The notes under the pieces: generated by a model
What the model was told of the DNA's origin: nothing
What the model saw: the letters and a program-made list of their open reading frames with translations, nothing else
The model's database searches: none
Shown here: positions 4,448 through 56,136 of the stretch, one piece after another
Layout of the letters: each line of letters starts with the position of its first letter
How positions within the stretch are numbered: position 1 is the stretch's first letter
Program-made: the position numbers and the translations under genes
Source of the DNA: Candidatus Woesearchaeota archaeon
GTDB lineage: Archaea > Nanobdellota > Nanobdellia > SCGC-AAA011-G17 > GW2011-AR18
Length of the DNA stretch: 64,000 nt
Reading direction: 5' to 3'
NCBI GenBank assembly: GCA_018302235.1
Contig: JAGVZW010000033.1
Span: 434-64,433, forward strand

Positions 4448-5098
4448 ATGTGGATCACTCTTTCTGGTATAGATGGAACAGGTAAGAATGCCTTAAAGGA
4501 TAGATTAGAAGTCTATTACGGTGAAAAAGGCTACTCCATCTTTAATTTTAAAGTTCCATATCATACATGGGTTAAAGAGATGATAAATTTATCTGGTGGT
4601 GGAAGAAGTCATGGTGATCCTTTAACAGATGAATTAATATTTGCCGCCTCCCACAGAATAGAAAGCCCCATGATCACTACCTGGAAAAAAAAATATGATA
4701 TCTTAATCTCTAAAAGATTCTGGTTAGACCAATTTCCATACGCTGAAGTTAAGGGTCTAAAATGGGAAGAAATAAGAGAGATAACTAAAACATATGAACT
4801 AGAAAAACCTGATTTAATGTTTTTTTTAGACTGTGATGCTGAATGCGCCTTAGAAAGAAAAAATGTTTATCCACATAAGTATAAATATATAGAATTTATT
4901 CGACCATTAAGAATAAATTTTTTGAGAGTAATGGATCTTTTAAAAGACAAAAAACTTCCTGAATTAGATAACATACCATATTTTTTAATAGACGCTCACA
5001 AAAGTTTGGAAAGAGTTTATGAGGAAATAAGAGATATTATTGACTCATATATTATAGAACATAACCTCCAACCTAAAATAATAAAAGAAGAAAAATAA
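4448..5098 (+). CDS. P-loop nucleotide/nucleoside kinase, thymidylate-kinase-like.
   Basis: N-terminal ITLSGIDGTGKNAL resembles the Tmk P-loop (ITxEGxDGxGKxT). 216 aa. Confidence 0.4.
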   Translation: MWITLSGIDGTGKNALKDRLEVYYGEKGYSIFNFKVPYHTWVKEMINLSGGGRSHGDPLTDELIFAASHRIESPMITTWKKKYDILISKRFWLDQFPYAEVKGLKWEEIREITKTYELEKPDLMFFLDCDAECALERKNVYPHKYKYIEFIRPLRINFLRVMDLLKDKKLPELDNIPYFLIDAHKSLERVYEEIRDIIDSYIIEHNLQPKIIKEEK

Positions 5099-5101
5099 AT
5101 T

Positions 5102-5455
5102 TTAATCCCTTGATATTGTGTATAGCGCCTTTATCGCTACAATCGCTGCACCAGGAGCAATAAATACACTCATCAACTGGAAGAATGCACTAACTGCCTG
5201 CCAGCCAAGCAATAATGTTTCTACTACTGTAGCTAATGATTGAAAGCTTATCAAAAATGCTATTGAAGCAACCAAATACAACTTAATCTCAGCATCTGTT
5301 ATATTCAAAAACCCTACTATTGCCCCCAATATCGCCAACAACAATACACTCCATGTTGGTGTATCTGCAGCCTTCACTACAGATATTAAAAACGCAATTA
5401 CTAAACCTACAATAAAAGACCATATTCCTATTTTACTTTTTAGGTTCTTAGACAT
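5102..5455 (-). CDS. Small membrane protein (3 predicted TM segments), hypothetical.
   Basis: 117 aa, hydrophobic throughout. Confidence 0.35.
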   Translation of the reverse strand: MSKNLKSKIGIWSFIVGLVIAFLISVVKAADTPTWSVLLLAILGAIVGFLNITDAEIKLYLVASIAFLISFQSLATVVETLLLGWQAVSAFFQLMSVFIAPGAAIVAIKALYTISRD

Positions 5456-10960: not shown

Positions 10961-11560
10961 TTATCTGCTTGAATCAGCTTGTCTTTCCAATTCTAATTTT
11001 TTAGTTATAGCTTGACTGCCTTGATCACACCTGTAAGCCTTCATAATCTCATCAGCTAAACATCTTTCTATTCTTTTCTTTTTATTAAATGAAGCACTAT
11101 AAGATCCTTGCACCATTTGTCTTAATACCAAATCAATTCGCCTTTGAGGGCTGCATTCAACAGCTTGTGGATATCTTGCTCCCCCATATTCTATAGCAGT
11201 AATCTCTTCGCGAGGAGCAGCATTTTCTACAGCCTTAATAAAAATTTCAATAGGATTAACCTTCATTTCCTTTTCAATAATATCAAAAGATTTTATTATT
11301 AAACAATAAACAGTATTATATTTTCCTGTACACTTGCCAGATGTTATTTTATGTTTTTTTCCCCTATGACCTGGAACCATCATTTTGTTTATTAATCTCT
11401 CTATAATATTATATTTGCTCTTCCAGAATCTATTGGAAGCATTTCTTCCACACCGTTTTGGAATATATACCTGATCTAAATTAATATAATCCCTTAATCC
11501 AACATCATTAACTTGTATTTGGGAAGTATCCCATCTGCCAAACAATTTTATTTCATTCAT
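10961..11560 (-). CDS. rps7: 30S ribosomal protein S7 (uS7).
   Basis: 199 aa, archaeal S7-like N-terminus (KLFGRWD), downstream of S12 in the conserved cluster. Confidence 0.85.
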   Translation of the reverse strand: MNEIKLFGRWDTSQIQVNDVGLRDYINLDQVYIPKRCGRNASNRFWKSKYNIIERLINKMMVPGHRGKKHKITSGKCTGKYNTVYCLIIKSFDIIEKEMKVNPIEIFIKAVENAAPREEITAIEYGGARYPQAVECSPQRRIDLVLRQMVQGSYSASFNKKKRIERCLADEIMKAYRCDQGSQAITKKLELERQADSSR

Positions 11561-13778: not shown

Positions 13779-16323
13779 CCCCCACTACCTCTTTAGCTAT
13801 CCTTTCAACATTAATCTTTCCACCCCATGTTTTAGAAACATCTAAACTATCTTCCCCGTATTGAAATTGAATTATATTTCCCTTTCCATCCCTTACAGAA
13901 TAATCATATTCTACCCTTAAATCCTGCAATGCACTAGATAATCTTCTATATAAGTACCCTGATTTTGGAGTTCTTAATGCAGTATCCATAAGCGAATCCC
14001 TTCCAGTCATAGCATGCATAAAAAATTCAGATGGAATTAATCCATCCCTATAACCTCTTTTTATATAGCCCTTAGAAGAAGGCTGTAAATCTCCCCTACT
14101 AAAAATAGTTAAAACCCTATCCTTATAACCATTAGCTATTCTTTTTCCTCTCAAAGCTTGTTGTCCAACACACGCAGCCATTTGAGCTAAATTAATAATA
14201 TTACCCTTTGCACCTGAATTTGCCATAATAACTACAGGATTGCTTTGATTTACATTTTCAGCAATTAACTGTCCAACCTTATTTCTTGATTTGTTCAATA
14301 TCTCCATAATCTTTATCTCTACTGTTTCTTCAAGAGCTAAGCCAGGTAATGGTTCTAATTCCCCATTATTATATTGCTCTATATATTGCAACACCTTCTT
14401 TTCTGCATTTGAAATGATCTCTATATTTTTTTCTTTAACATGTTCAGGTAGATCAACATTTGTACTAGAGATAGAAAACCCCTCTCGCAATAAAATTTCA
14501 ATACCCAATCTAAATATTTGTCCTAAAATTTCAATTCCAGTTTCTTGATTATATTTAGCAAAAACTGCTCTTATTAATGTACCTTTCTCATTACCTATTG
14601 TATTATTATCAATATATCCTTTTATAATATTCCCATTCTTAATCACTAATTCTTCTTTAAGTTTAGTAATCCCTATAAAATCAAAATCCGATGGCAATAA
14701 CATACTAAATATCTCAATGCCCTTTACTTTATTTTTTAAATTTAAAAATTTTTCAGGCTTATTCACACCTATCGAATACAAAATTTCTATTGCATCTTCC
14801 CTATTATATTCTAATTCTTTAGTAAGCAAATAATTCCCAGTAACTGAATCTGTATCACATCCAATAATATTCAAACCATTTTTAGGTGTTATAATTTGGT
14901 TTTTTACATCCATCAACATCTCAACCTCAACCCTTGCCTCTTCTATTTGAGGTATATGAAGATTCATTTCATCACCATCAAAATCAGCGTTATATGGATT
15001 ACAAACCGCGGGATTCAACCTAAAAGATTTTCCAGGAAGGACCTTTATTCTATGCCCCATAATACTCATTCTATGTAATGAAGGCTGTCTGTTAAATATT
15101 GCAATATCATTATCCATTAAATGCCGTTCTACCTGATAGCCAGGCTGTAATTCTTCTAATAATTGTTCTTGTGTTTCCTCTGTTATCTTTTTTTTCTTAT
15201 TATCTGGTCGAATAACATAATTGCTTCCAGGATATTTTTCTGGACCATTTTCTACAAATTTTTTCATTCTTTTAAGGTTCCATTCTGTTACTCTCTCTGG
15301 TATGGTTAACTCCATAGCCACTTCTTTAGGTATTCCAACCTCATTTAATTCTAATTTTGGATCTGGAGAAATTACTGTCCTTGCAGCATAATTTACCCTC
15401 TTGCCAACTAAATTATTTCTAAACCTACCTTCTTTACTTTTTATTCTCTCACTTAATGTTTTCAGAGCCTGACCACTCCTATGTCTTGCTGGAGGGACCT
15501 GACTTATCTCATTATCAAAATATGTAGTAACATGATATTGTAATAAATCCCATAAATCCTCCACAATAACCTCTGGTGCACCAGCATTAATATTCTCAAA
15601 CAATCTTTGATTAATCCTAACAATATCACTTAATTTATGGGTTAAATCATCCTCACTTCTTTCCCCAGTTTCTAATGTAATAGATGGTCTAATAGTTACA
15701 GGAGGAACAGGTAATATCTCCAAAATTGCCCATTCAGGTCTTGCTTTCGAAGGGTCCAATCCAATTAAAGAGACAGTAAACTCACTAATCTTTTCCAATC
15801 TTAATTTAATTTCGATTATTGATAATTTTTTATCATTCTCTAAGAATGTTGATGGTTTTTCTATTTTAACACTATATTGCTTAGCTTGACAATGTGGACA
15901 TTTCTTAACATTTCTAGCACTTGTTATTAATGATCTTATATGCTTTTTCATCTCACTTTTAGTTATAACGTTTTCTTTCTTCTTTATTTTTTTTTCATCT
16001 AATAATATTTCACCACATTCCCTACATGTAGCCCTTAAGAAAGCTAGAACCATATCTATATATTTTATGTGTAATAGCGGCCTTGCTAATTCAATATATC
16101 CAAAATGACCATTACACTCCTTTAATTTTCCACCGCAAGTTTTACATCTTAATCCAGGATCTATAACACCCAACCTAATATCCATTAACCCCCCATCAAC
16201 AGGATAACCCTCTTTATCATATAATTCAGGGGTTACAACCTTAACACTAGCCATTTTTTTAACTAATTCAGGACTCAACATCCCAAATTCTATGGCCTTA
16301 ATTTTTTTATAATATTCTCTCAT
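13759..16323 (-). CDS. rpoA1: DNA-directed RNA polymerase subunit A'.
   Basis: 854 aa with NADFDGDEMNLH, the catalytic Mg-binding motif, and N-terminal zinc-binding Cys clusters. Confidence 0.95.
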   Translation of the reverse strand: MREYYKKIKAIEFGMLSPELVKKMASVKVVTPELYDKEGYPVDGGLMDIRLGVIDPGLRCKTCGGKLKECNGHFGYIELARPLLHIKYIDMVLAFLRATCRECGEILLDEKKIKKKENVITKSEMKKHIRSLITSARNVKKCPHCQAKQYSVKIEKPSTFLENDKKLSIIEIKLRLEKISEFTVSLIGLDPSKARPEWAILEILPVPPVTIRPSITLETGERSEDDLTHKLSDIVRINQRLFENINAGAPEVIVEDLWDLLQYHVTTYFDNEISQVPPARHRSGQALKTLSERIKSKEGRFRNNLVGKRVNYAARTVISPDPKLELNEVGIPKEVAMELTIPERVTEWNLKRMKKFVENGPEKYPGSNYVIRPDNKKKKITEETQEQLLEELQPGYQVERHLMDNDIAIFNRQPSLHRMSIMGHRIKVLPGKSFRLNPAVCNPYNADFDGDEMNLHIPQIEEARVEVEMLMDVKNQIITPKNGLNIIGCDTDSVTGNYLLTKELEYNREDAIEILYSIGVNKPEKFLNLKNKVKGIEIFSMLLPSDFDFIGITKLKEELVIKNGNIIKGYIDNNTIGNEKGTLIRAVFAKYNQETGIEILGQIFRLGIEILLREGFSISSTNVDLPEHVKEKNIEIISNAEKKVLQYIEQYNNGELEPLPGLALEETVEIKIMEILNKSRNKVGQLIAENVNQSNPVVIMANSGAKGNIINLAQMAACVGQQALRGKRIANGYKDRVLTIFSRGDLQPSSKGYIKRGYRDGLIPSEFFMHAMTGRDSLMDTALRTPKSGYLYRRLSSALQDLRVEYDYSVRDGKGNIIQFQYGEDSLDVSKTWGGKINVERIAKEVVGVDKNVT

Positions 16324-41340: not shown

Positions 41341-41452
41341 GCCTCACTAGCTCAGCCTGGTTAGAGCGCCACTCTCATATGTTTGAGAAATGAAGCATTA
41401 GCTAATGAACTAAGAAAGGTGGAGGTCGGGGGTTCAAATCCCCCATGAGGCA
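41341..41452 (+). tRNA. tRNA-Met (anticodon CAU) with a 37-nt intron at the canonical 37/38 position.
   Basis: Manual fold: acceptor GCCTCAC..ATGAGGC, D-arm GCTC/GAGC, anticodon stem CCACT/GGTGG with CTCATA followed by the intron (41380..41416), T-arm GGGGG TTCAAAT CCCCC. Confidence 0.7.
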
Positions 41453-47971: not shown

Positions 47972-48762
47972 CTATTGTTTCTTTGTAAATATAATAATTG
48001 CAATTATACCTAATATTATAATAAATACAAAGATTATTGTTGTTAATGAAAACCCCCAAATAACAGTATGAGATGATACCCCTGCTATTGAATTCGAATT
48101 TGCTATTGGTTTATCAGAAAATGTACTTGTTGAAACAACCTCTCCTGCTTCAAGATTATTAAAATTATATTTTATAACGGGATCATTTTCAATTATTTCA
48201 GTATTATCTGGCAAAACTAATTCTGATGCATCTGCTACATCTTCTTTTGGAATCTCAATTATTATATCTAAATCACCATCTTCAGGCATGACATATGTTT
48301 CTTTTAATTCATAAAATTCTTTACTTTCTCCATTTTTATTAATACCTACATGTGTAATTAACTCTTTTTTTTCTGCATTAACTGGTCTTTCTTTTTCTAA
48401 ATTAAAAATTGCTGTTTCTAAACCTTTATTTGGTTTTTCTTGAAGTTTTTTAGTTAAAATAATTAAAGCTCTATCCCTTCCTTTGTCCTCTAATTTTTCT
48501 TCTTTTAATACAAAAGTTTCTGCATCTTCATCAATAAATTTTTTAGCAGCTTTTTTTTCATCTTTATCATCCTTGTCTTCTACTTCATCTTTATCATCCT
48601 TGTCTTCTACTTCATCTTTATCATCCTTGTCTTCTACTTCATCTTTATCATCCTTTTGTCTTCCTTGTCATCTTCAGATTCATTTGAACCAGCAAAGACT
48701 AAAGAAAAAAAACTAATTAAAAAAAATACTATAATAACACTAGAGATTATTTTTTTATACAT
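47972..48762 (-). pseudogene. Acidic-repeat, C-terminally anchored secreted protein gene disrupted by frameshifts.
   Basis: ATG at 48762 encodes a signal peptide MYKKIISSVIIVFFLISFFL and then stops. A second frame encodes SLVFAGSNESEDDKEDK. A third frame (48667..47972) carries four DDKDEVEDK repeats, then ...MPEDGD... and a C-terminal TM helix. The shifts lie at a T7 run and inside the 27-nt repeat array. Confidence 0.4.
48558..48675. repeat. 27-nt tandem repeat, about 4 copies, with the last copy degenerate.
   Basis: Unit tcatctttatcatccttgtcttctact. On the coding strand this encodes DDKDEVEDK. Confidence 0.8.
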
Positions 48763-48887
48763 ATATATATTAAGAGAAACCCATATATAAATATATAAGC
48801 AATGATTATATGTATTTAGTTTTTTATAAAAGAACTATCAATATGTCATAAATATGTAAAGAAATATTTAAATAGCTTCTTTTTTTC

Positions 48888-49013
48888 AAGAACTTAAGCG
48901 AGGGTGCCGGAGTGGCCAAACGGGGTAGAATTATATTGTCTTAAAACACTATAATACCCATACTCAAGTTTGAAAAATAATCATTGAGTCATCTACTGGC
49001 TTAGTGCCTACGC
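48888..49013 (+). tRNA. Class-II-type (Leu/Ser-like) tRNA 5' portion with a long anticodon-loop intron. The 3' T-stem and acceptor strand were not found.
   Basis: GCGAGGG acceptor 5' strand, CCG/CGG D-stem with loop GAGTGGCCAAA, anticodon stem GTAGA...TCTAC separated by about 62 nt, a long variable arm GGCTTAGTGCC, and GCAGG TTCGAAT. No CCTGC or CCCTCGC complement follows. Confidence 0.35.
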
Positions 49014-49256
49014 AGGTTCGAATTTCTTAAAAAATACAATTCATTTTTATAAACCTCATAAGTCATTAAAGCAGAAAAAATTAGAGATAAAACTGCTAAA
49101 GAAATATAAAGGTGTTTATGATATCTTATTCTTCTTGGATCTTTTATATCCTTATAAATTGTTGTAGCTAATCCAAGACACTCCTCTTCTAGTTCTTTTT
49201 TTAATTCATGCATAATTATCAAAAAATTAGGTTATTAAAATAGTTTACGCTTAGAA

Positions 49257-50748
49257 TTCACTGGTGTATTAAGTGGGCTTTTTTAAGAATAAAATATATG
49301 AAATATATGGAATATGGTAAAGTTTATATAGTTCTTATATTGCATATATTTATGCAAATAAGATATAATCCATTTAATCCTCAACAACCAGCAAAACCTC
49401 ATTTTTTTGTTGGAAGAGAACAGGAAGTAAAATGTTTTGAAAATTTTTTAGGTCAAACTATTTACAATTCTCCTATGAATATGACCATTACAGGAGATAG
49501 AGGAATGGGTAAAACATCAATATTAAATAAATTTGAAGAGATAGCAGATAATCAAAGAGCCTTAGTAGTTAATGTTTCTAATTATGAGGGTAATGTAAAA
49601 GATGTAATTGAACTATCTGAATTCCTAATTACAAATATTCAAAGAGAAATAATAAGTCGTAATCCTATTTCAAAAAAAATTAATGAATTTGGAAAATGGG
49701 TTAGTTCATTTAAAGCAAGAATAGAAGTAAAAGGAATTACAATAGCTTTAGAAAAGAAACAAATAGTTGAATATATTTTAAGAGAAAAATTAGAAGAAAT
49801 ATGGAAAAATGTTAAAGAAATGTATACATCTATTGTAATTTTAATTGATGAAGCCGAAAGTTTAGAAAATATGGATGGTTTAACTTTTTTAAGAGAAGTT
49901 TTTCAAAAAGTACAATCAAATTCAAATTATATGATTGTTTTAGCAGGAAAATTTAACTTTCCTGAAAAAATGTCAGAACAATTTTCTCCTTTAAATCGCT
50001 TTTTTCCTGCAGAAAGATTAAGAAGATTAACTGAAAAAGATGTTTCAAATTATTTAGAAAATAGATTAAATGATACTGAGGTTAATATTGACAAAGAAGC
50101 CATATATAATTTATTTAAAAAATCAGAAGGACATCCGTATGTTTTAGTTTGTATTGGTTTTTTAGTTTTCGATTCTTTAAAAACTAATGAAATGGCTATT
50201 AATTCAGATGTTGTAGAAAGAAGTATTTGGAAAATTAGAGGGAAATTATCTCAAGATTTTTTTACTCCTATGTTTTATCCTTTATCACCACAAGCAAAAA
50301 GAATAATATGTAAAATCGCTAAAGAAATTAAAGGTTTAAAATTTACAATGAATGAAGCTACTTTAATAACTAATATGCCTAATAATCAACTTTCTGGTTA
50401 TTTTGGAGAATTTTTAAAAAGAGGAATACTTACAAAACCAAGTAGAGGTGTATATTGGATATTTCATACACAATTTAAAGAATATTTAATACATAATTCG
50501 GATAAATTTAATTAGATTCTTTTTCAATAATAATCTTTCCTTTTTCAAATACAATCTTTAATTCTTTGTCTATTAACCCACTCTCTTCTATTATTCTTTT
50601 AGGAAGATTAATTCTATATCTAAAATACTTATTATTATTAATCTCTTTGTCAAATGCTTTTAAAATTTTCATAAATGGTTTAGATATCAGAAGTTTTTAA
50701 AGTGTTCCGGTTTCCGAATTATTTAAGCCCACTTAATGCACCAGTGAA
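49257..50748. mobile_element. Putative transposon-like insertion: 24-bp terminal inverted repeats flanked by an 8-bp direct repeat (GCTTAGAA), carrying one ATPase gene.
   Basis: Left end TTCACTGGTGTATTAAGTGGGCTT (49257..49280). Right end AAGCCCACTTAATGCACCAGTGAA (50725..50748), its reverse complement with 1 mismatch. GCTTAGAA lies immediately outside both ends (49249..49256 and 50749..50756). Confidence 0.5.
49298..50515 (+). CDS. AAA+ ATPase of the archaeal ATPase (Arch_ATPase/ORC-like) family.
   Basis: FFVGREQEV...MTITGDRGMGKTSIL is Walker A and ILIDEAESL is Walker B, with a C-terminal wH-like region. Confidence 0.6.
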   Translation: MKYMEYGKVYIVLILHIFMQIRYNPFNPQQPAKPHFFVGREQEVKCFENFLGQTIYNSPMNMTITGDRGMGKTSILNKFEEIADNQRALVVNVSNYEGNVKDVIELSEFLITNIQREIISRNPISKKINEFGKWVSSFKARIEVKGITIALEKKQIVEYILREKLEEIWKNVKEMYTSIVILIDEAESLENMDGLTFLREVFQKVQSNSNYMIVLAGKFNFPEKMSEQFSPLNRFFPAERLRRLTEKDVSNYLENRLNDTEVNIDKEAIYNLFKKSEGHPYVLVCIGFLVFDSLKTNEMAINSDVVERSIWKIRGKLSQDFFTPMFYPLSPQAKRIICKIAKEIKGLKFTMNEATLITNMPNNQLSGYFGEFLKRGILTKPSRGVYWIFHTQFKEYLIHNSDKFN

Positions 50749-50789
50749 GCTTAGAAATATTTAAATCTCTTTTTAATTTATATTTTGTA

Positions 50790-51488: not shown

Positions 51489-52607
51489 ATGGAAAAGAAA
51501 TATTCCTCCCATCACGATACTAAAAAATATGCATGGGATTTTGCAAGAGAAAGATTTGGAAGTAAAGATGATGAAATTACTAAAGTAGAAACGTTAAGTT
51601 TATCTAGAAAAGATGAGAGTAAAAAAGATTCTGGTATTTTGAATGTTAAAACTAAAGATCAATTAAGTCAAGTGCATGAGAGTAATATTAAAGAAGAACC
51701 TCATATTTTAAAACCTTGGTATAAATTAATAGAACGGCTTACATATAGAAAAAAGAATAACGAGCTTACAAAAATTGATGAAAATTCTTTTAAAAGAATT
51801 GTAAAGATTGGATCAGTATTTATTGAAATCAATGACCGTACTGCTTATAACAGAGCTTTATATGAAAGAGGAAATAATTTTGGACTAGAAGAGCGTTTTT
51901 TGAAAAAACATTTTAAAGGTATTAGTTTTGCTGCTGCAACTACTGCTTTAACTATAGGAGTATTTACATTATATAATAGATTTAAATCTTCAATTGACGA
52001 TCATTTTCAAGTAAAAACCCCTATTAGCTATCAAATTAAAGAGCTTGAAGATGATTTAGAGGGAATCGTTGAAGATTATAAACCCAGAGAAATTGAAGTT
52101 GTTGAAACTAAACCAATTAAAGTTGTTGAAACTAAACCAATTAAAGTTGTTGAAACTAAACCAATTAAAGTTGTTGAAACTAAACCAATTAAAGTTGTTG
52201 AAACTAAACCCAGAGAAGAGATTAGAAAAAATGGGATGTATAGTGTTGATTTTTCAAGAACAAGTTTTAGAAATGGAAGAATAATAAGCACTACTGAATC
52301 TAATAAAATAATGCGGTTTTCAGAATATCATGGAACTCCTTATAAAGGGGAGGGCGATGAATTAAAATTGCGGATAAATAAAGATGGAACATCTTATCAA
52401 ATAAGATCTGAAACGAAAAAAGCTAGGAACTATTTTGTTATATGTTATGATACAAATGGTAATTTTATTGGGACTAAAAATGGAAATATTTCTAATGAGG
52501 ATGTAGTTCAAATACCTAAGGAAACAAGATATACTGATACTATGCTATTAAATGAAAAAGGAATAAGTATTGCATCACATATCAGTTACCAAAATATTGT
52601 TTTATAA
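51489..52607 (+). CDS. Hypothetical protein with a single TM segment and a VETKPIKV tandem-repeat region.
   Basis: 372 aa with a TM helix at GISFAAATTALTIGVFTLY. Four to five in-frame VVETKPIK repeats are encoded by a 24-nt tandem array. Confidence 0.45.
   Translation: MEKKYSSHHDTKKYAWDFARERFGSKDDEITKVETLSLSRKDESKKDSGILNVKTKDQLSQVHESNIKEEPHILKPWYKLIERLTYRKKNNELTKIDENSFKRIVKIGSVFIEINDRTAYNRALYERGNNFGLEERFLKKHFKGISFAAATTALTIGVFTLYNRFKSSIDDHFQVKTPISYQIKELEDDLEGIVEDYKPREIEVVETKPIKVVETKPIKVVETKPIKVVETKPIKVVETKPREEIRKNGMYSVDFSRTSFRNGRIISTTESNKIMRFSEYHGTPYKGEGDELKLRINKDGTSYQIRSETKKARNYFVICYDTNGNFIGTKNGNISNEDVVQIPKETRYTDTMLLNEKGISIASHISYQNIVL
52098..52211. repeat. 24-nt perfect tandem repeat (4.75 copies) flanked by aaacccagagaa.
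   Basis: Unit gttgttgaaactaaaccaattaaa, in frame within the 51489..52607 CDS. Confidence 0.85.
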
Positions 52608-53722: not shown

Positions 53723-54118
53723 TTAATACTTCCTTTTTCTTCTATCTAATGTTAGAAGTTCAATTTTAAATGGATCTTTTTTTATTTCTTTAACTATTGT
53801 AGCTGGTCCAACAATAGTTAAACCATTTGATCTACCCAATAAAAAATTAGCAATTTTTAATCTGATCCTCTCAAATAATTCCTGATTTTGTTTAATGTTA
53901 TCAATACTGCATATCTCGATCCCCTTAAATTTTTTATCTATTTCCTCCATTGTTTTAGTTATTAATTCTGCCTCTTCATTAGGATCTAATTTTCCCTCTA
54001 TTAAAATTATCTTATCCTCTTTTACACTCCTTAAAATCTTTTTTAATTTTTCTTCTGTATTCAAATTTCCAAGTTCATGATATGGGATATATTGTAACGT
54101 TAACAATTTTTTGTTCAC
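53723..54118 (-). CDS. Conserved archaeal hypothetical protein, possibly DUF2073-like.
   Basis: 131 aa, overlaps the upstream GTPase stop by 4 nt and lies 3 nt upstream of the Zn-ribbon gene. Confidence 0.35.
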   Translation of the reverse strand: MNKKLLTLQYIPYHELGNLNTEEKLKKILRSVKEDKIILIEGKLDPNEEAELITKTMEEIDKKFKGIEICSIDNIKQNQELFERIRLKIANFLLGRSNGLTIVGPATIVKEIKKDPFKIELLTLDRRKRKY

Positions 54119-56136
54119 CTCTTTTTCACCATTTCAAATACCTTATCATAAAATTCCTCCATGTTTAAGCCCTTTTCAGCTGATATGCCTATAACAGAAT
54201 ATTGAGGAAATGCATCTTCTATTTTTTTTACATCAGATTTCTTTAAATCTGTTTTATTAGCTACAATTAAAACTGGAATATCCCTTGCAGCTAAATTACC
54301 TATAATTGTTATATTTACTTGATTATATGGATTTCTAGTTGAATCTAATACAATTAAAACACAATCCATATCATCCAACCATTTTATTGCATCTATAATC
54401 CCCTTTGTAGCCTCTTTCGCCCTTTCTTTTGCTTCATCTATCTTCATTTTAAATTTAAGAAAATCCTCATAATCAATCTTTGTAGCGATTCCTGGTGTAT
54501 CAACTAGATTAAAACTTAATTCCTTTCCCTTTGAATTAATAGTGATTTTTTCCTTCATATTTATTTCCCTTGTTTCATGTGGAATAGAAGATACTGTTCC
54601 CATATCTTCCCCTAACCAATCCTGACATATTCTATTTGCAATGCTAGTATTATGAGCGATCAGGCCATTAGAAATAATAAAGGTATGTGTATCTTCAATT
54701 GTTAAATCATAAATATAATCATTATATTCTTCTTGAGTTATTTCTTTAATTTCATCCCACAAGTTATCTGAATTAGTTAAAGTCTTTATAATTTTATTAT
54801 TTAATACTCTAGACATTTTCTCTAATCTATGATATGATATTCTATTATCTCTGTACATTCTAGCAATATGTTTATTATCTAAATAAAATTCTTCTTCTTT
54901 TAATTTCTCTTGTTTTCTTATATTTTCCAATAAACCCATAATAGGCAAATAAAACTTATTTCTTTTTAAACAACATTTGGATAGTTTATCTAATCTTTCA
55001 GCTTTATATTTTATTCTAAAACCAATTTTTTCTTTAAACAATCTGTGATTATCACTTCCAAATATAAATAAACTCCAGTAGGCTTGACCATTAATTAATT
55101 TTGATCTAAATCTCCCTACAATCCCAAATCTATTTAAAAGTAATTGAACTTGTTCTACCAAAATTTTACTTTTGGTACTATATTCAATCTGATTGCTAGA
55201 ATTTTTAGTTAATTTAGAAACATAACCCCCCATATCAAATAAAATTTGTAATAATTTTGCTGTTAAATTATCAGGTAAACCCATAAATTGTGAAGGAATT
55301 TGTTTATTACCTGAAAGAGATGGTTTGAAATTTAAACTTTTTTCTAAAAAATCAGTTAATGTTCTTGAATTTAATTCTCTTTCAGGCACACCATTATTTA
55401 TTCTTTTAATGGCTTCTAAATTGAATAATTTTTTTGTTAAATAATCAAAATGATTTAATGCGTATTCGTCTGAATTACTAAATTTAATCACGCTTTTTGT
55501 ATAATATGCTTCTGTAATTAGATAACCTATAAAACTAACTAAATCTTCATCTATGTAAGAAGGTATAATTATCTCTTTTTGATTATGAAATTTAGATATT
55601 ATTTGTATCATATTGCCATTAACGTTGAAACAATTTTCAGTAATTAATTTGGGTAACATAATGTTTGTTGCTAAGGATAACTTTTTTGCAATAGCAATAG
55701 ATTCATTAGCCTTTAAACCTCCAGTTCTTATATTCTCTACGCCATTATTTGAAAGCCTGATTAATGGATGTTCTGGTGTAACTCTTATTTGTCTACCCGC
55801 TTTAGTTAAAATATTATATATTTTTCCTTTATATTTTTGAGCATAAACAAAACTCACTCGTTTTGGAATTATTTTTAAGGTTTGTGTATTAAAACTTGGT
55901 ATGATTAAATTTTTAGATCTTACATCAATATATATTTCATTAAATGAATTATTATGGTTTACGCTATCAAATATTTCTTTTATTGTTTTAATTTCTCCAT
56001 TCATTAATACAATTTTAGTTTCTGGTGTAACACATTTTCCGCTGTTCGGTGGCCCATAAAGTCCTAATTTTATATTCTTCTTTTTATTAAAAATTGACCT
56101 TAAATTAAAAAAGAAAACCTTAAGCTTACGAATCAT
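54115..56136 (-). CDS. Small Ras/Era-like GTPase interrupted by an intein in the P-loop. The mature extein is about 211 aa.
   Basis: Extein motifs are GLYGPPNSGK|...|TSI (G1, split), DTPG (G3), NKTD (G4) and SAEK (G5). The intervening 462 aa begin with Cys and end with HN, followed by Thr. Confidence 0.65.
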   Translation of the reverse strand: MIRKLKVFFFNLRSIFNKKKNIKLGLYGPPNSGKCVTPETKIVLMNGEIKTIKEIFDSVNHNNSFNEIYIDVRSKNLIIPSFNTQTLKIIPKRVSFVYAQKYKGKIYNILTKAGRQIRVTPEHPLIRLSNNGVENIRTGGLKANESIAIAKKLSLATNIMLPKLITENCFNVNGNMIQIISKFHNQKEIIIPSYIDEDLVSFIGYLITEAYYTKSVIKFSNSDEYALNHFDYLTKKLFNLEAIKRINNGVPERELNSRTLTDFLEKSLNFKPSLSGNKQIPSQFMGLPDNLTAKLLQILFDMGGYVSKLTKNSSNQIEYSTKSKILVEQVQLLLNRFGIVGRFRSKLINGQAYWSLFIFGSDNHRLFKEKIGFRIKYKAERLDKLSKCCLKRNKFYLPIMGLLENIRKQEKLKEEEFYLDNKHIARMYRDNRISYHRLEKMSRVLNNKIIKTLTNSDNLWDEIKEITQEEYNDYIYDLTIEDTHTFIISNGLIAHNTSIANRICQDWLGEDMGTVSSIPHETREINMKEKITINSKGKELSFNLVDTPGIATKIDYEDFLKFKMKIDEAKERAKEATKGIIDAIKWLDDMDCVLIVLDSTRNPYNQVNITIIGNLAARDIPVLIVANKTDLKKSDVKKIEDAFPQYSVIGISAEKGLNMEEFYDKVFEMVKKR
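54649..56034 (-). other. Intein (about 462 aa) with a LAGLIDADG-type homing endonuclease domain, inserted after the P-loop Lys.
   Basis: Block A is CVTPETKIVLMNGE directly after GPPNSGK. The C-terminal block is THTFIISNGLIAHN, with Thr as the +1 residue. Internal LAGLIDADG-like motifs are LVSFIGYLITEAYY and LLQILFDMGGYVS. Confidence 0.6.

Follow-up and report, generated by a model that had tools for sequence, protein, structure and literature searches.

A probable two-intron tRNA-Leu(CAA) gene in a Woesearchaeota-like contig and the likely artefactual loss of its 3' end

The locus described here lies on the plus strand of the window, by which we denote the whole 64,000-nt stretch of DNA that was analysed. 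An acceptor 5' strand (GCGAGGG, 48898-48904) is followed by T and G (U8 and G9), a D-arm with a 3-bp stem (CCG/CGG) and an 11-nt loop (GAGTGGCCAAA; in RNA, GAGUGGCCAAA), G26, and the two strands of an anticodon stem, GTAGA (48925-48929) and TCTAC (48992-48996), which are separated by exactly 62 nt. In RNA, UCUAC leads through UGGCUUAGUGCCUAC to GCAGG-UUCGAAU (GCAGG at 49012-49016 and TTCGAAT at 49017-49023), the long variable arm (TGGCTTAGTGCCTAC) reading GGC-UUAGU-GCC. All of the elements listed in a preliminary description of this DNA were found when the sequence was read, in the order given there, and its recognition of the 5' portion of a class II tRNA was correct, in that the window carries tRNA positions 1-60. 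The start that it gave (48888) was wrong: tRNA position 1 is 48898, and the preceding ten bases are promoter-proximal spacer. The 3-bp D-stem with G18 and G19, along with the long variable arm, are those of a class II tRNA-Leu, and the segment 48898-49023 probably represents positions 1-60 of a contiguous tRNA-Leu(CAA) gene of a low-GC DPANN (Woesearchaeota/Nanoarchaeia-like) archaeon (Table 1).

Table 1. Features of the tRNA locus and deletions private to the window, with their coordinates in the window.
Feature	Position	Strand	Remarks
TATA-box-like motif (archaeal), TTTAAATA	48867..48874	+	Read from sequence; centre ~27 nt 5' of position 1
Exon 1, positions 1-30	48898..48928	+	Acceptor 5' strand, U8 G9, D-arm, G26, anticodon stem G27-G30
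Intron 1 (predicted), 33 nt	48929..48961	+	Non-canonical position 30/31; top tRNA-compatible hit of BHB scan
Micro-exon ACUCAAG, positions 31-37	48962..48968	+	Anticodon CAA at 48965-48967
Intron 2 (predicted), 22 nt	48969..48990	+	Canonical position 37/38, after G37; ARAGORN intron once intron 1 removed
Exon 3, truncated, positions 38-60	48991..49023	+	A38, UCUAC, long variable arm, GCAGG, UUCGAAU
Antisense ORF, 70 aa	49001..49213	-	ATG at 49213
Deletion, 30 nt	Junction after 361		Intergenic
Deletion, 146 nt	Junction after 7106		Frameshifts 515-aa prolyl-tRNA synthetase (ProRS); truncated form
Deletion, 173 nt	Junction after 47342		715-aa Rce1-like protein split into 212-aa and 401-aa ORFs
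Deletion, 69 nt	49022..49024 (junction after 49022)	.	69 nt absent from window; tRNA 3' end removed; 1 nt microhomology
Deletion, 45 nt	Junction after 51391		In-frame; TrmI/GCD14 reduced from 231 to 216 aa
Deletion, 89 nt	Junction after 61161		Intergenic

The first 26 nt of the gene were identical to those of tRNA-Leu genes in 18 species-representative genomes (GTDB), nearly all of which are annotated as archaeal and most of which are Woesearchaeota or Nanoarchaeota MAGs. The number of chance matches to the 5' 32-mer expected in the window is zero, and the resemblance to a tRNA is far beyond chance. The sequence upstream of the tRNA recurs in conserved form in L027, L029, L030 and the sister species (L024), and the TTTAAATA box may be a promoter element, judging by its placement relative to that in archaeal promoters. 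A near-identical promoter-like sequence, AGAAATATTTAAATA, was observed before both the tRNA (48860-48886) and the TrmI gene (50753-50779). In-frame tandem repeats were also observed, with 27-nt units upstream of the tRNA (48523-48657) and 24-nt units in a 372-aa ORF (52045-52234), the copy number of the latter varying between assemblies to give 372-aa or 348-aa products.

Neither CCTGC nor CCCTCGC follows T60 in the window, as had been noted previously, and AT-rich sequence stands there instead. The acceptor stem is represented by its 5' strand GCGAGGG alone, with neither the complement for its seven base pairs nor A73, and the GCAGG-UUCGAAU of the T-arm has no 3' strand; the suggestion that the gene is disrupted therefore holds for the window sequence. 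Having lost the discriminator and the 3' strands of both the T-stem and the acceptor stem, the window locus is unable to make a functional tRNA, and could at most yield a non-functional transcript lacking the acceptor 3' strand. Searches for the missing strand (CCUGY-CCCUCGC-A), conducted exactly, with up to three mismatches and with tolerance of G-U pairs, retrieved nothing beyond chance matches on either strand of the 64-kb window; the matches at 11210 (minus strand) and 59900 (plus strand) were rejected as chance occurrences in ORFs, the latter lying within a 717-aa minus-strand ORF. No tRNA was called at the locus by ARAGORN, either by default or with introns of up to 3 kb, or by the Rfam tRNA model, either at the gathering threshold or at E<=10, and MFE folding of 48898-49030 and 48898-49260 gave no significant structure beyond intron hairpins (z = -1.8 and -0.5, respectively). 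The sole tRNA detected in the window is located at 41341-41452 (plus strand; Rfam, 48 bits). When read by hand, it has the anticodon CAT (Met or Ile2), a canonical intron of ~37 nt and a C7/A66 acceptor mismatch, and it was miscalled as Ser(cga) by ARAGORN with introns enabled.

The complete gene was found in other assemblies. The 128-aa OapC-like product of a neighbouring gene is encoded on ~50 blocks of public assemblies, with contigs from the Rifle aquifer that include JGI C687J... contigs, ENA MEGAHIT assemblies and ANAN16-1 scaffolds. The comparators (L001-L006, L008 and L029) represent at least eight samples and three assembly sources, the tRNA region being covered by seven of the eight retrieved contigs and by one further JGI contig, L029. 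Among the Rifle samples that yielded L001-L008 are JGI 3300002104/3300002105, ERZ27254836 and ERZ4903070. Seven contigs were 100% identical to window 48700-49320, or to the part of it that they cover, save for a difference of 69 nt; L029 has a few mismatches relative to the same segment and also carries the 69 nt. This piece consists of (T)CCTGTCCCTCGCA, which holds tRNA positions 61-73, and 56 nt of downstream flank (ATATTCTTCACATGATTCCATACAAGAATCAGTTATTTGTTCTAATGAATTTGAT), such that the 13 tRNA nucleotides missing from the window are CCTGT-CCCTCGC-A and the window junction reads GGTTCGAAT/TTCTTAAAA (also written GGTTCGAAT/TTCTTAAAAAATAC). The intact gene is 139 nt long (in L002 it lies in 14720-14870, minus strand); its acceptor CCCTCGC-A pairs 7/7 with GCGAGGG (L002 and others), and the T-stem 3' strand CCUGU forms four Watson-Crick pairs and one G-U pair. 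A complete contiguous gene with identical introns and a different downstream flank is also encoded by the sister species L024 (DATDVT010000039.1; ~90% identity). Also in the window, 54115-56136 (minus strand) encodes a GTPase (MMR_HSR1) split by an intein that bears a LAGLIDADG endonuclease domain, and the OapB and OapC genes follow it.

The tail is thus missing from the window because this record is without 69 bases that other assemblies carry, and since T60 is directly continued by the 3' T-stem strand, the acceptor strand and A73 in eight contigs and in L024, the gene is contiguous. Several proposals in the preliminary description can be settled on this basis. A search for a matching 3' half (CCTGC-CCCTCGC) found none in the 64-kb window; the 3' end is present, contiguously, in conspecific contigs. 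The A-rich sequence after T60 does exist, but it is ordinary downstream flank moved adjacent by the 69-nt deletion, and a very long insertion in the T-loop is not supported, in that positions 61-73 directly follow T60 in the intact loci. The Rfam tRNA model missed the intact gene in L002 too.

The 62 nt between the anticodon-stem strands had been taken for a single long anticodon-loop intron, which was not upheld: they comprise two BHB introns and a 7-nt micro-exon (Table 1). In the BHB scan, a motif was defined as a 4-bp helix with a 3-nt bulge at each end, on opposite strands, each bulge being cut after its second nucleotide. Intron 1 has this geometry: the central helix is GGGU/ACCC, the bulges read AGA and AUA, the inner helix (AUUAUA/UAUAAU) has 6 bp and the outer helix 1 bp. 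Its excision joins G30 to A31, exposing ...GUAGA-CUCAAG. At intron 2, which occupies the canonical position, C32-A35 pair with UGAG near the intron 3' end (CUCA/UGAG), and the inner helix is weak in the window species. It had been correctly pointed out that a UAU anticodon is unfit for a class II body; removal of both introns gives the anticodon CAA, and so resolves the conflict. The anticodon arm after splicing reads GUAGA / CUCAAGA / UCUAC, a 5-bp stem and a 7-nt loop with a Leu anticodon.

The splicing model was tested on the intact sequence taken from a conspecific contig. ARAGORN identified the doubly spliced 84-mer as tRNA-Leu(CAA), with a class II variable arm and A73, and when either intron was removed singly it detected the remaining one as an intron. 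The unspliced intact gene, under a one-intron assumption, was miscalled as Ile(TAT), which is the same UAU/class II conflict that had been met in the preliminary description, and the window's truncated version gave no ARAGORN call. Both introns are predicted to be spliced out of a tRNA-Leu(CAA) precursor. The micro-exon was unchanged in L002, L024, L012 and L028, and agrees with the intron-less tRNA-Leu(CAA) of L025, which has the same 84-nt length and two differences outside the anticodon stem. In the more distant homologues L012 and L028, introns of unrelated sequence occupy both of the same sites, and U28 is replaced by C28, accompanied by A42 to G42 and, in the strand of intron 1 with which position 28 pairs, by an A to G change; this covariation at position 28 rests on three distinct sequences, with L012 and L028 needing one extra unpaired nucleotide. 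Intron 1 of both fits a relaxed BHB only; the L028 motif at the intron-2 site is both strict and strong, its central helix spanning 4 bp and its inner helix 10 bp. Among other Woesearchaeota/Nanoarchaeota MAGs (L009, L013-L020, L022 and L026), tRNA-Leu genes with the same 26-nt 5' end were observed to have no intron, a canonical intron only, a short intron after position 26-27, or two introns, a variety indicating that introns have been gained and lost rapidly in a single tRNA family.

On established knowledge of archaeal tRNA splicing, the intact gene would be transcribed from the TATA-like promoter at about -27, after which the splicing endonuclease would recognise the two BHB motifs and excise the introns of 33 and 22 nt. 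Ligation of exons of 30, 7 and 47 nt would then produce an 84-nt class II tRNA with A73, and end processing and CCA addition would complete the tRNA-Leu(CAA).

An antisense ORF overlaps the tRNA gene (Table 1). In intact assemblies it is 93 aa long (L002 14481-14762) and crosses the segment deleted from the window, its C-terminal 7 to 20 codons and stop (up to 63 nt) overlapping the 3' part of the tRNA gene; public gene calls have placed the 93-aa ORF on an unrecognised tRNA gene. Pfam gave no hit for the antisense ORF, and the indexed assemblies have no record of its 70-aa version. A role for it in the function of the tRNA is improbable, and the 93-aa ORF is likely to be spurious, or at least mis-extended.

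The gap in the tRNA is one of six deletions private to the window (Table 1), the junctions of which are clean, with microhomology of 0-3 nt. Relative to the best comparators there were 0-3 substitutions over ~60 kb, and window 7107-39898 contained zero deletions. None of three deletion-specific products (the 216-aa TrmI, the 70-aa ORF and the 212-aa Rce1 fragment) is on record in the indexed assemblies, whereas intact neighbouring products are listed in ~50 blocks, and a 35-mer spanning the tRNA junction had 0 matches in JGI metagenome contigs. Of 19 true contig ends of other assemblies, 8 lie no further than ~100 nt from one of the six sites, where ~0.4 would be expected (binomial probability ~1e-9). 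At the tRNA, the sequences of co-occurring relatives are identical for ~160 nt, beginning in the promoter region and ending at T-loop position 59, and diverge both upstream of this stretch and from T-loop position 60 onward, which is a visible reason for assemblies to break there. Medium-sized deletions, the near absence of point changes and a frameshifted ProRS together fit an artefact much better than a living lineage. From these sequence comparisons, the 69-nt deletion would probably have arisen artefactually, in assembly, at a scaffolding gap or mis-join, or in the processing of the sequence, and the truncated state is most probably not biological. A search for a motif shared by the borders of the six deletions found that two of the deleted segments end in AATTTGAT and the others do not, which was taken as coincidence.

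The 69-nt deletion could instead be a real allele, that of a sub-lineage with a tRNA-Leu(CAA) pseudogene and five other deletions in the same decaying or defective genome, in which UUG would be read by tRNA-Leu(UAA) wobble. This is unlikely, though some observations favour it: clean junctions with 0-3 nt of microhomology are as replication slippage or end-joining would leave them, breaks of other contigs at the same sites are what strain-level indel bubbles would give and would equally arise were a true strain with the deletion present alongside the others in the same samples, and tRNA-Leu(CAA) is dispensable in principle where a UAA isoacceptor exists. Nonetheless, six deletions of 30-173 nt alongside so few substitutions do not form a spectrum that natural mutation would give, genes are frameshifted by two of the six, including ProRS, which is normally essential and single-copy, and neither the three deletion-specific products nor the tRNA junction occurs in any indexed public assembly. 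It is very improbable that the six deletions are all genuine and are the signature of a degenerating sub-lineage that coexists with the rest of the DPANN population, lacks tRNA-Leu(CAA) and has ProRS and the Rce1-like protein frameshifted; if true, such a sub-lineage could persist only if complemented by co-infecting sister cells or by a host, or through a second gene copy. Expression of the promoter-bearing fragment of positions 1-60, and its use in trans, is less likely still.

The preliminary description had proposed a split tRNA, of the Nanoarchaeum-like kind, or a permuted one, in which positions 1-60 would be joined through a BHB at 59/60 to a separate 3' piece ending in CCUGUCCCUCGCA. 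Such a reading could draw on the intact promoter-like box, on a lineage that clearly tolerates non-canonical introns, and on the T-loop site 59/60, known in Archaea and red algae as a position of non-canonical introns and permutation junctions. The prediction of a split at 59/60, its leader ending in CGAA-NN, was abandoned when the intact loci came to light. In the window there is no CGAA-NN leader motif, no second copy of the 5' part and no 3' half with a complementary leader, the 3' piece being absent upstream and downstream on both strands of the 64 kb. The sequence after T60 is exactly the flank found 69 nt downstream in the intact locus and not a dedicated trailer, and the region upstream, where a permuted gene would have its 3' segment, is an AT-rich conserved promoter region without CCTGY-CCCTCGC. 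The arrangement is not common to the population, in that eight other contigs and the sister species have the gene contiguous, and the split and permuted readings, which have scarcely any probability left, are effectively refuted by the intact conspecific loci.

Downstream of the tRNA lies an inverted-repeat element of 1,492 bp (49257-50748), with 24-nt terminal inverted repeats matching at 23/24 positions and a perfect 8-bp target-site duplication (GCTTAGAA) at 49249-49256 and 50749-50756. Its unoccupied site is present in L024 (...TAGTTTACGTTTAGAAATATTTAAATC...), and the element is a genuine insertion. Within 49257-50748 it encodes a STAND-like NTPase of 405 aa (AAA_16/ATPase_2) and an ORF of 54 aa, and nothing recognisable as a transposase. 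In another Woesearchaeota contig, L014 (JAZDKJ010000012.1, ~5068-5300), the last 18 nt of a tRNA-Leu(GAG) gene (CGAACCTCGTCCCTCGCA) were observed to be repeated ~85 nt downstream, which looks like an att-type repeat from an integrated element. The partial tRNA in the window might by the same token be the att remnant that marks one border of an integrated mobile element, a view consistent with the att-like duplication in L014, with the transposon-like element, its inverted repeats and target-site duplication lying 230 nt downstream, and with the differences that separate the window lineage from L024 immediately 3' of the tRNA. This too is extremely improbable: such remnants are duplicated segments, yet no second copy of any tRNA part exists in the window (the 5' exon occurs once only, even at 3 mismatches), what the window retains is a promoter-bearing 5' part in the orthologous place, the 8-bp duplication belongs to the inverted-repeat element and is distant from the tRNA, and assemblies with the same element keep an intact tRNA.

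The value of the locus is mainly cautionary, in that an exotic-looking "half tRNA" comes down to a 69-nt gap in one particular record, and is settled in one step by comparison with conspecific assemblies. Other findings in the window near 361, 7106, 47342, 51391 and 61161 deserve the same suspicion. The gene also illustrates how two-intron DPANN tRNAs go unnoticed: even when intact it is missed by the Rfam tRNA model and by ARAGORN in default mode, it is mislabelled Ile(UAU) under a one-intron assumption, and a spurious 93-aa antisense ORF is called instead. Missed two-intron tRNAs contribute to the "incomplete tRNA sets" reported for such genomes, which point to unidentified disrupted tRNAs (PMC5829648).

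Amongst known systems, tRNA pseudogenes and scaffold-gap artefacts in MAGs resemble the window locus in the clean internal loss at a point where de Bruijn-graph assemblies break, and differ in that the artefact mechanism is here deduced from sequence comparison. Circularly permuted tRNA genes occur in Cyanidioschyzon merolae (PMC3978253). Thermofilum pendens is a further case. The window locus breaks in the T-loop, which is a known permutation junction; it differs from permuted genes in that no 3' segment precedes the 5' segment in the window, where the upstream sequence is the conserved promoter region. The split tRNAs of Nanoarchaeum equitans, Caldivirga maquilingensis and the Desulfurococcales (PMC2237900, PMC4390854) likewise present a promoter-bearing 5' fragment with no 3' partner nearby; theirs, however, have a dedicated trailer complementary to the leader of the 3' half and are fixed in the species, whereas here a displaced downstream flank follows the fragment and conspecific assemblies are contiguous.

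The closest likeness is to the multiple-intron archaeal tRNAs with non-canonical BHB introns of Thermoproteales, ARMAN/Micrarchaeota and other DPANN (PMC4090602, PMC4033280, PMC5829648). As in those genes, one intron is canonical (37/38) and one non-canonical in the anticodon stem, both with BHB geometry and with a short micro-exon between them, and standard tRNA finders miss or mislabel the gene; the differences are that the host here is a Woesearchaeota-like groundwater archaeon of ~26% GC, and that the gene in the window is also truncated. DPANN, including Woesearchaeota, show a marked rise in disrupted tRNA genes with non-canonical and multiple introns, and DPANN lineages, Woesearchaeota being among those surveyed, have EndA variants with an inserted loop (PMC5829648). 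The window copy lacks the complete acceptor stem and T-stem of a multi-intron archaeal class II tRNA, whilst the intact form has them and qualifies as one; multi-intron DPANN tRNAs are already known, and the intact gene is an instance of the known disrupted-tRNA phenomenon of these archaea.
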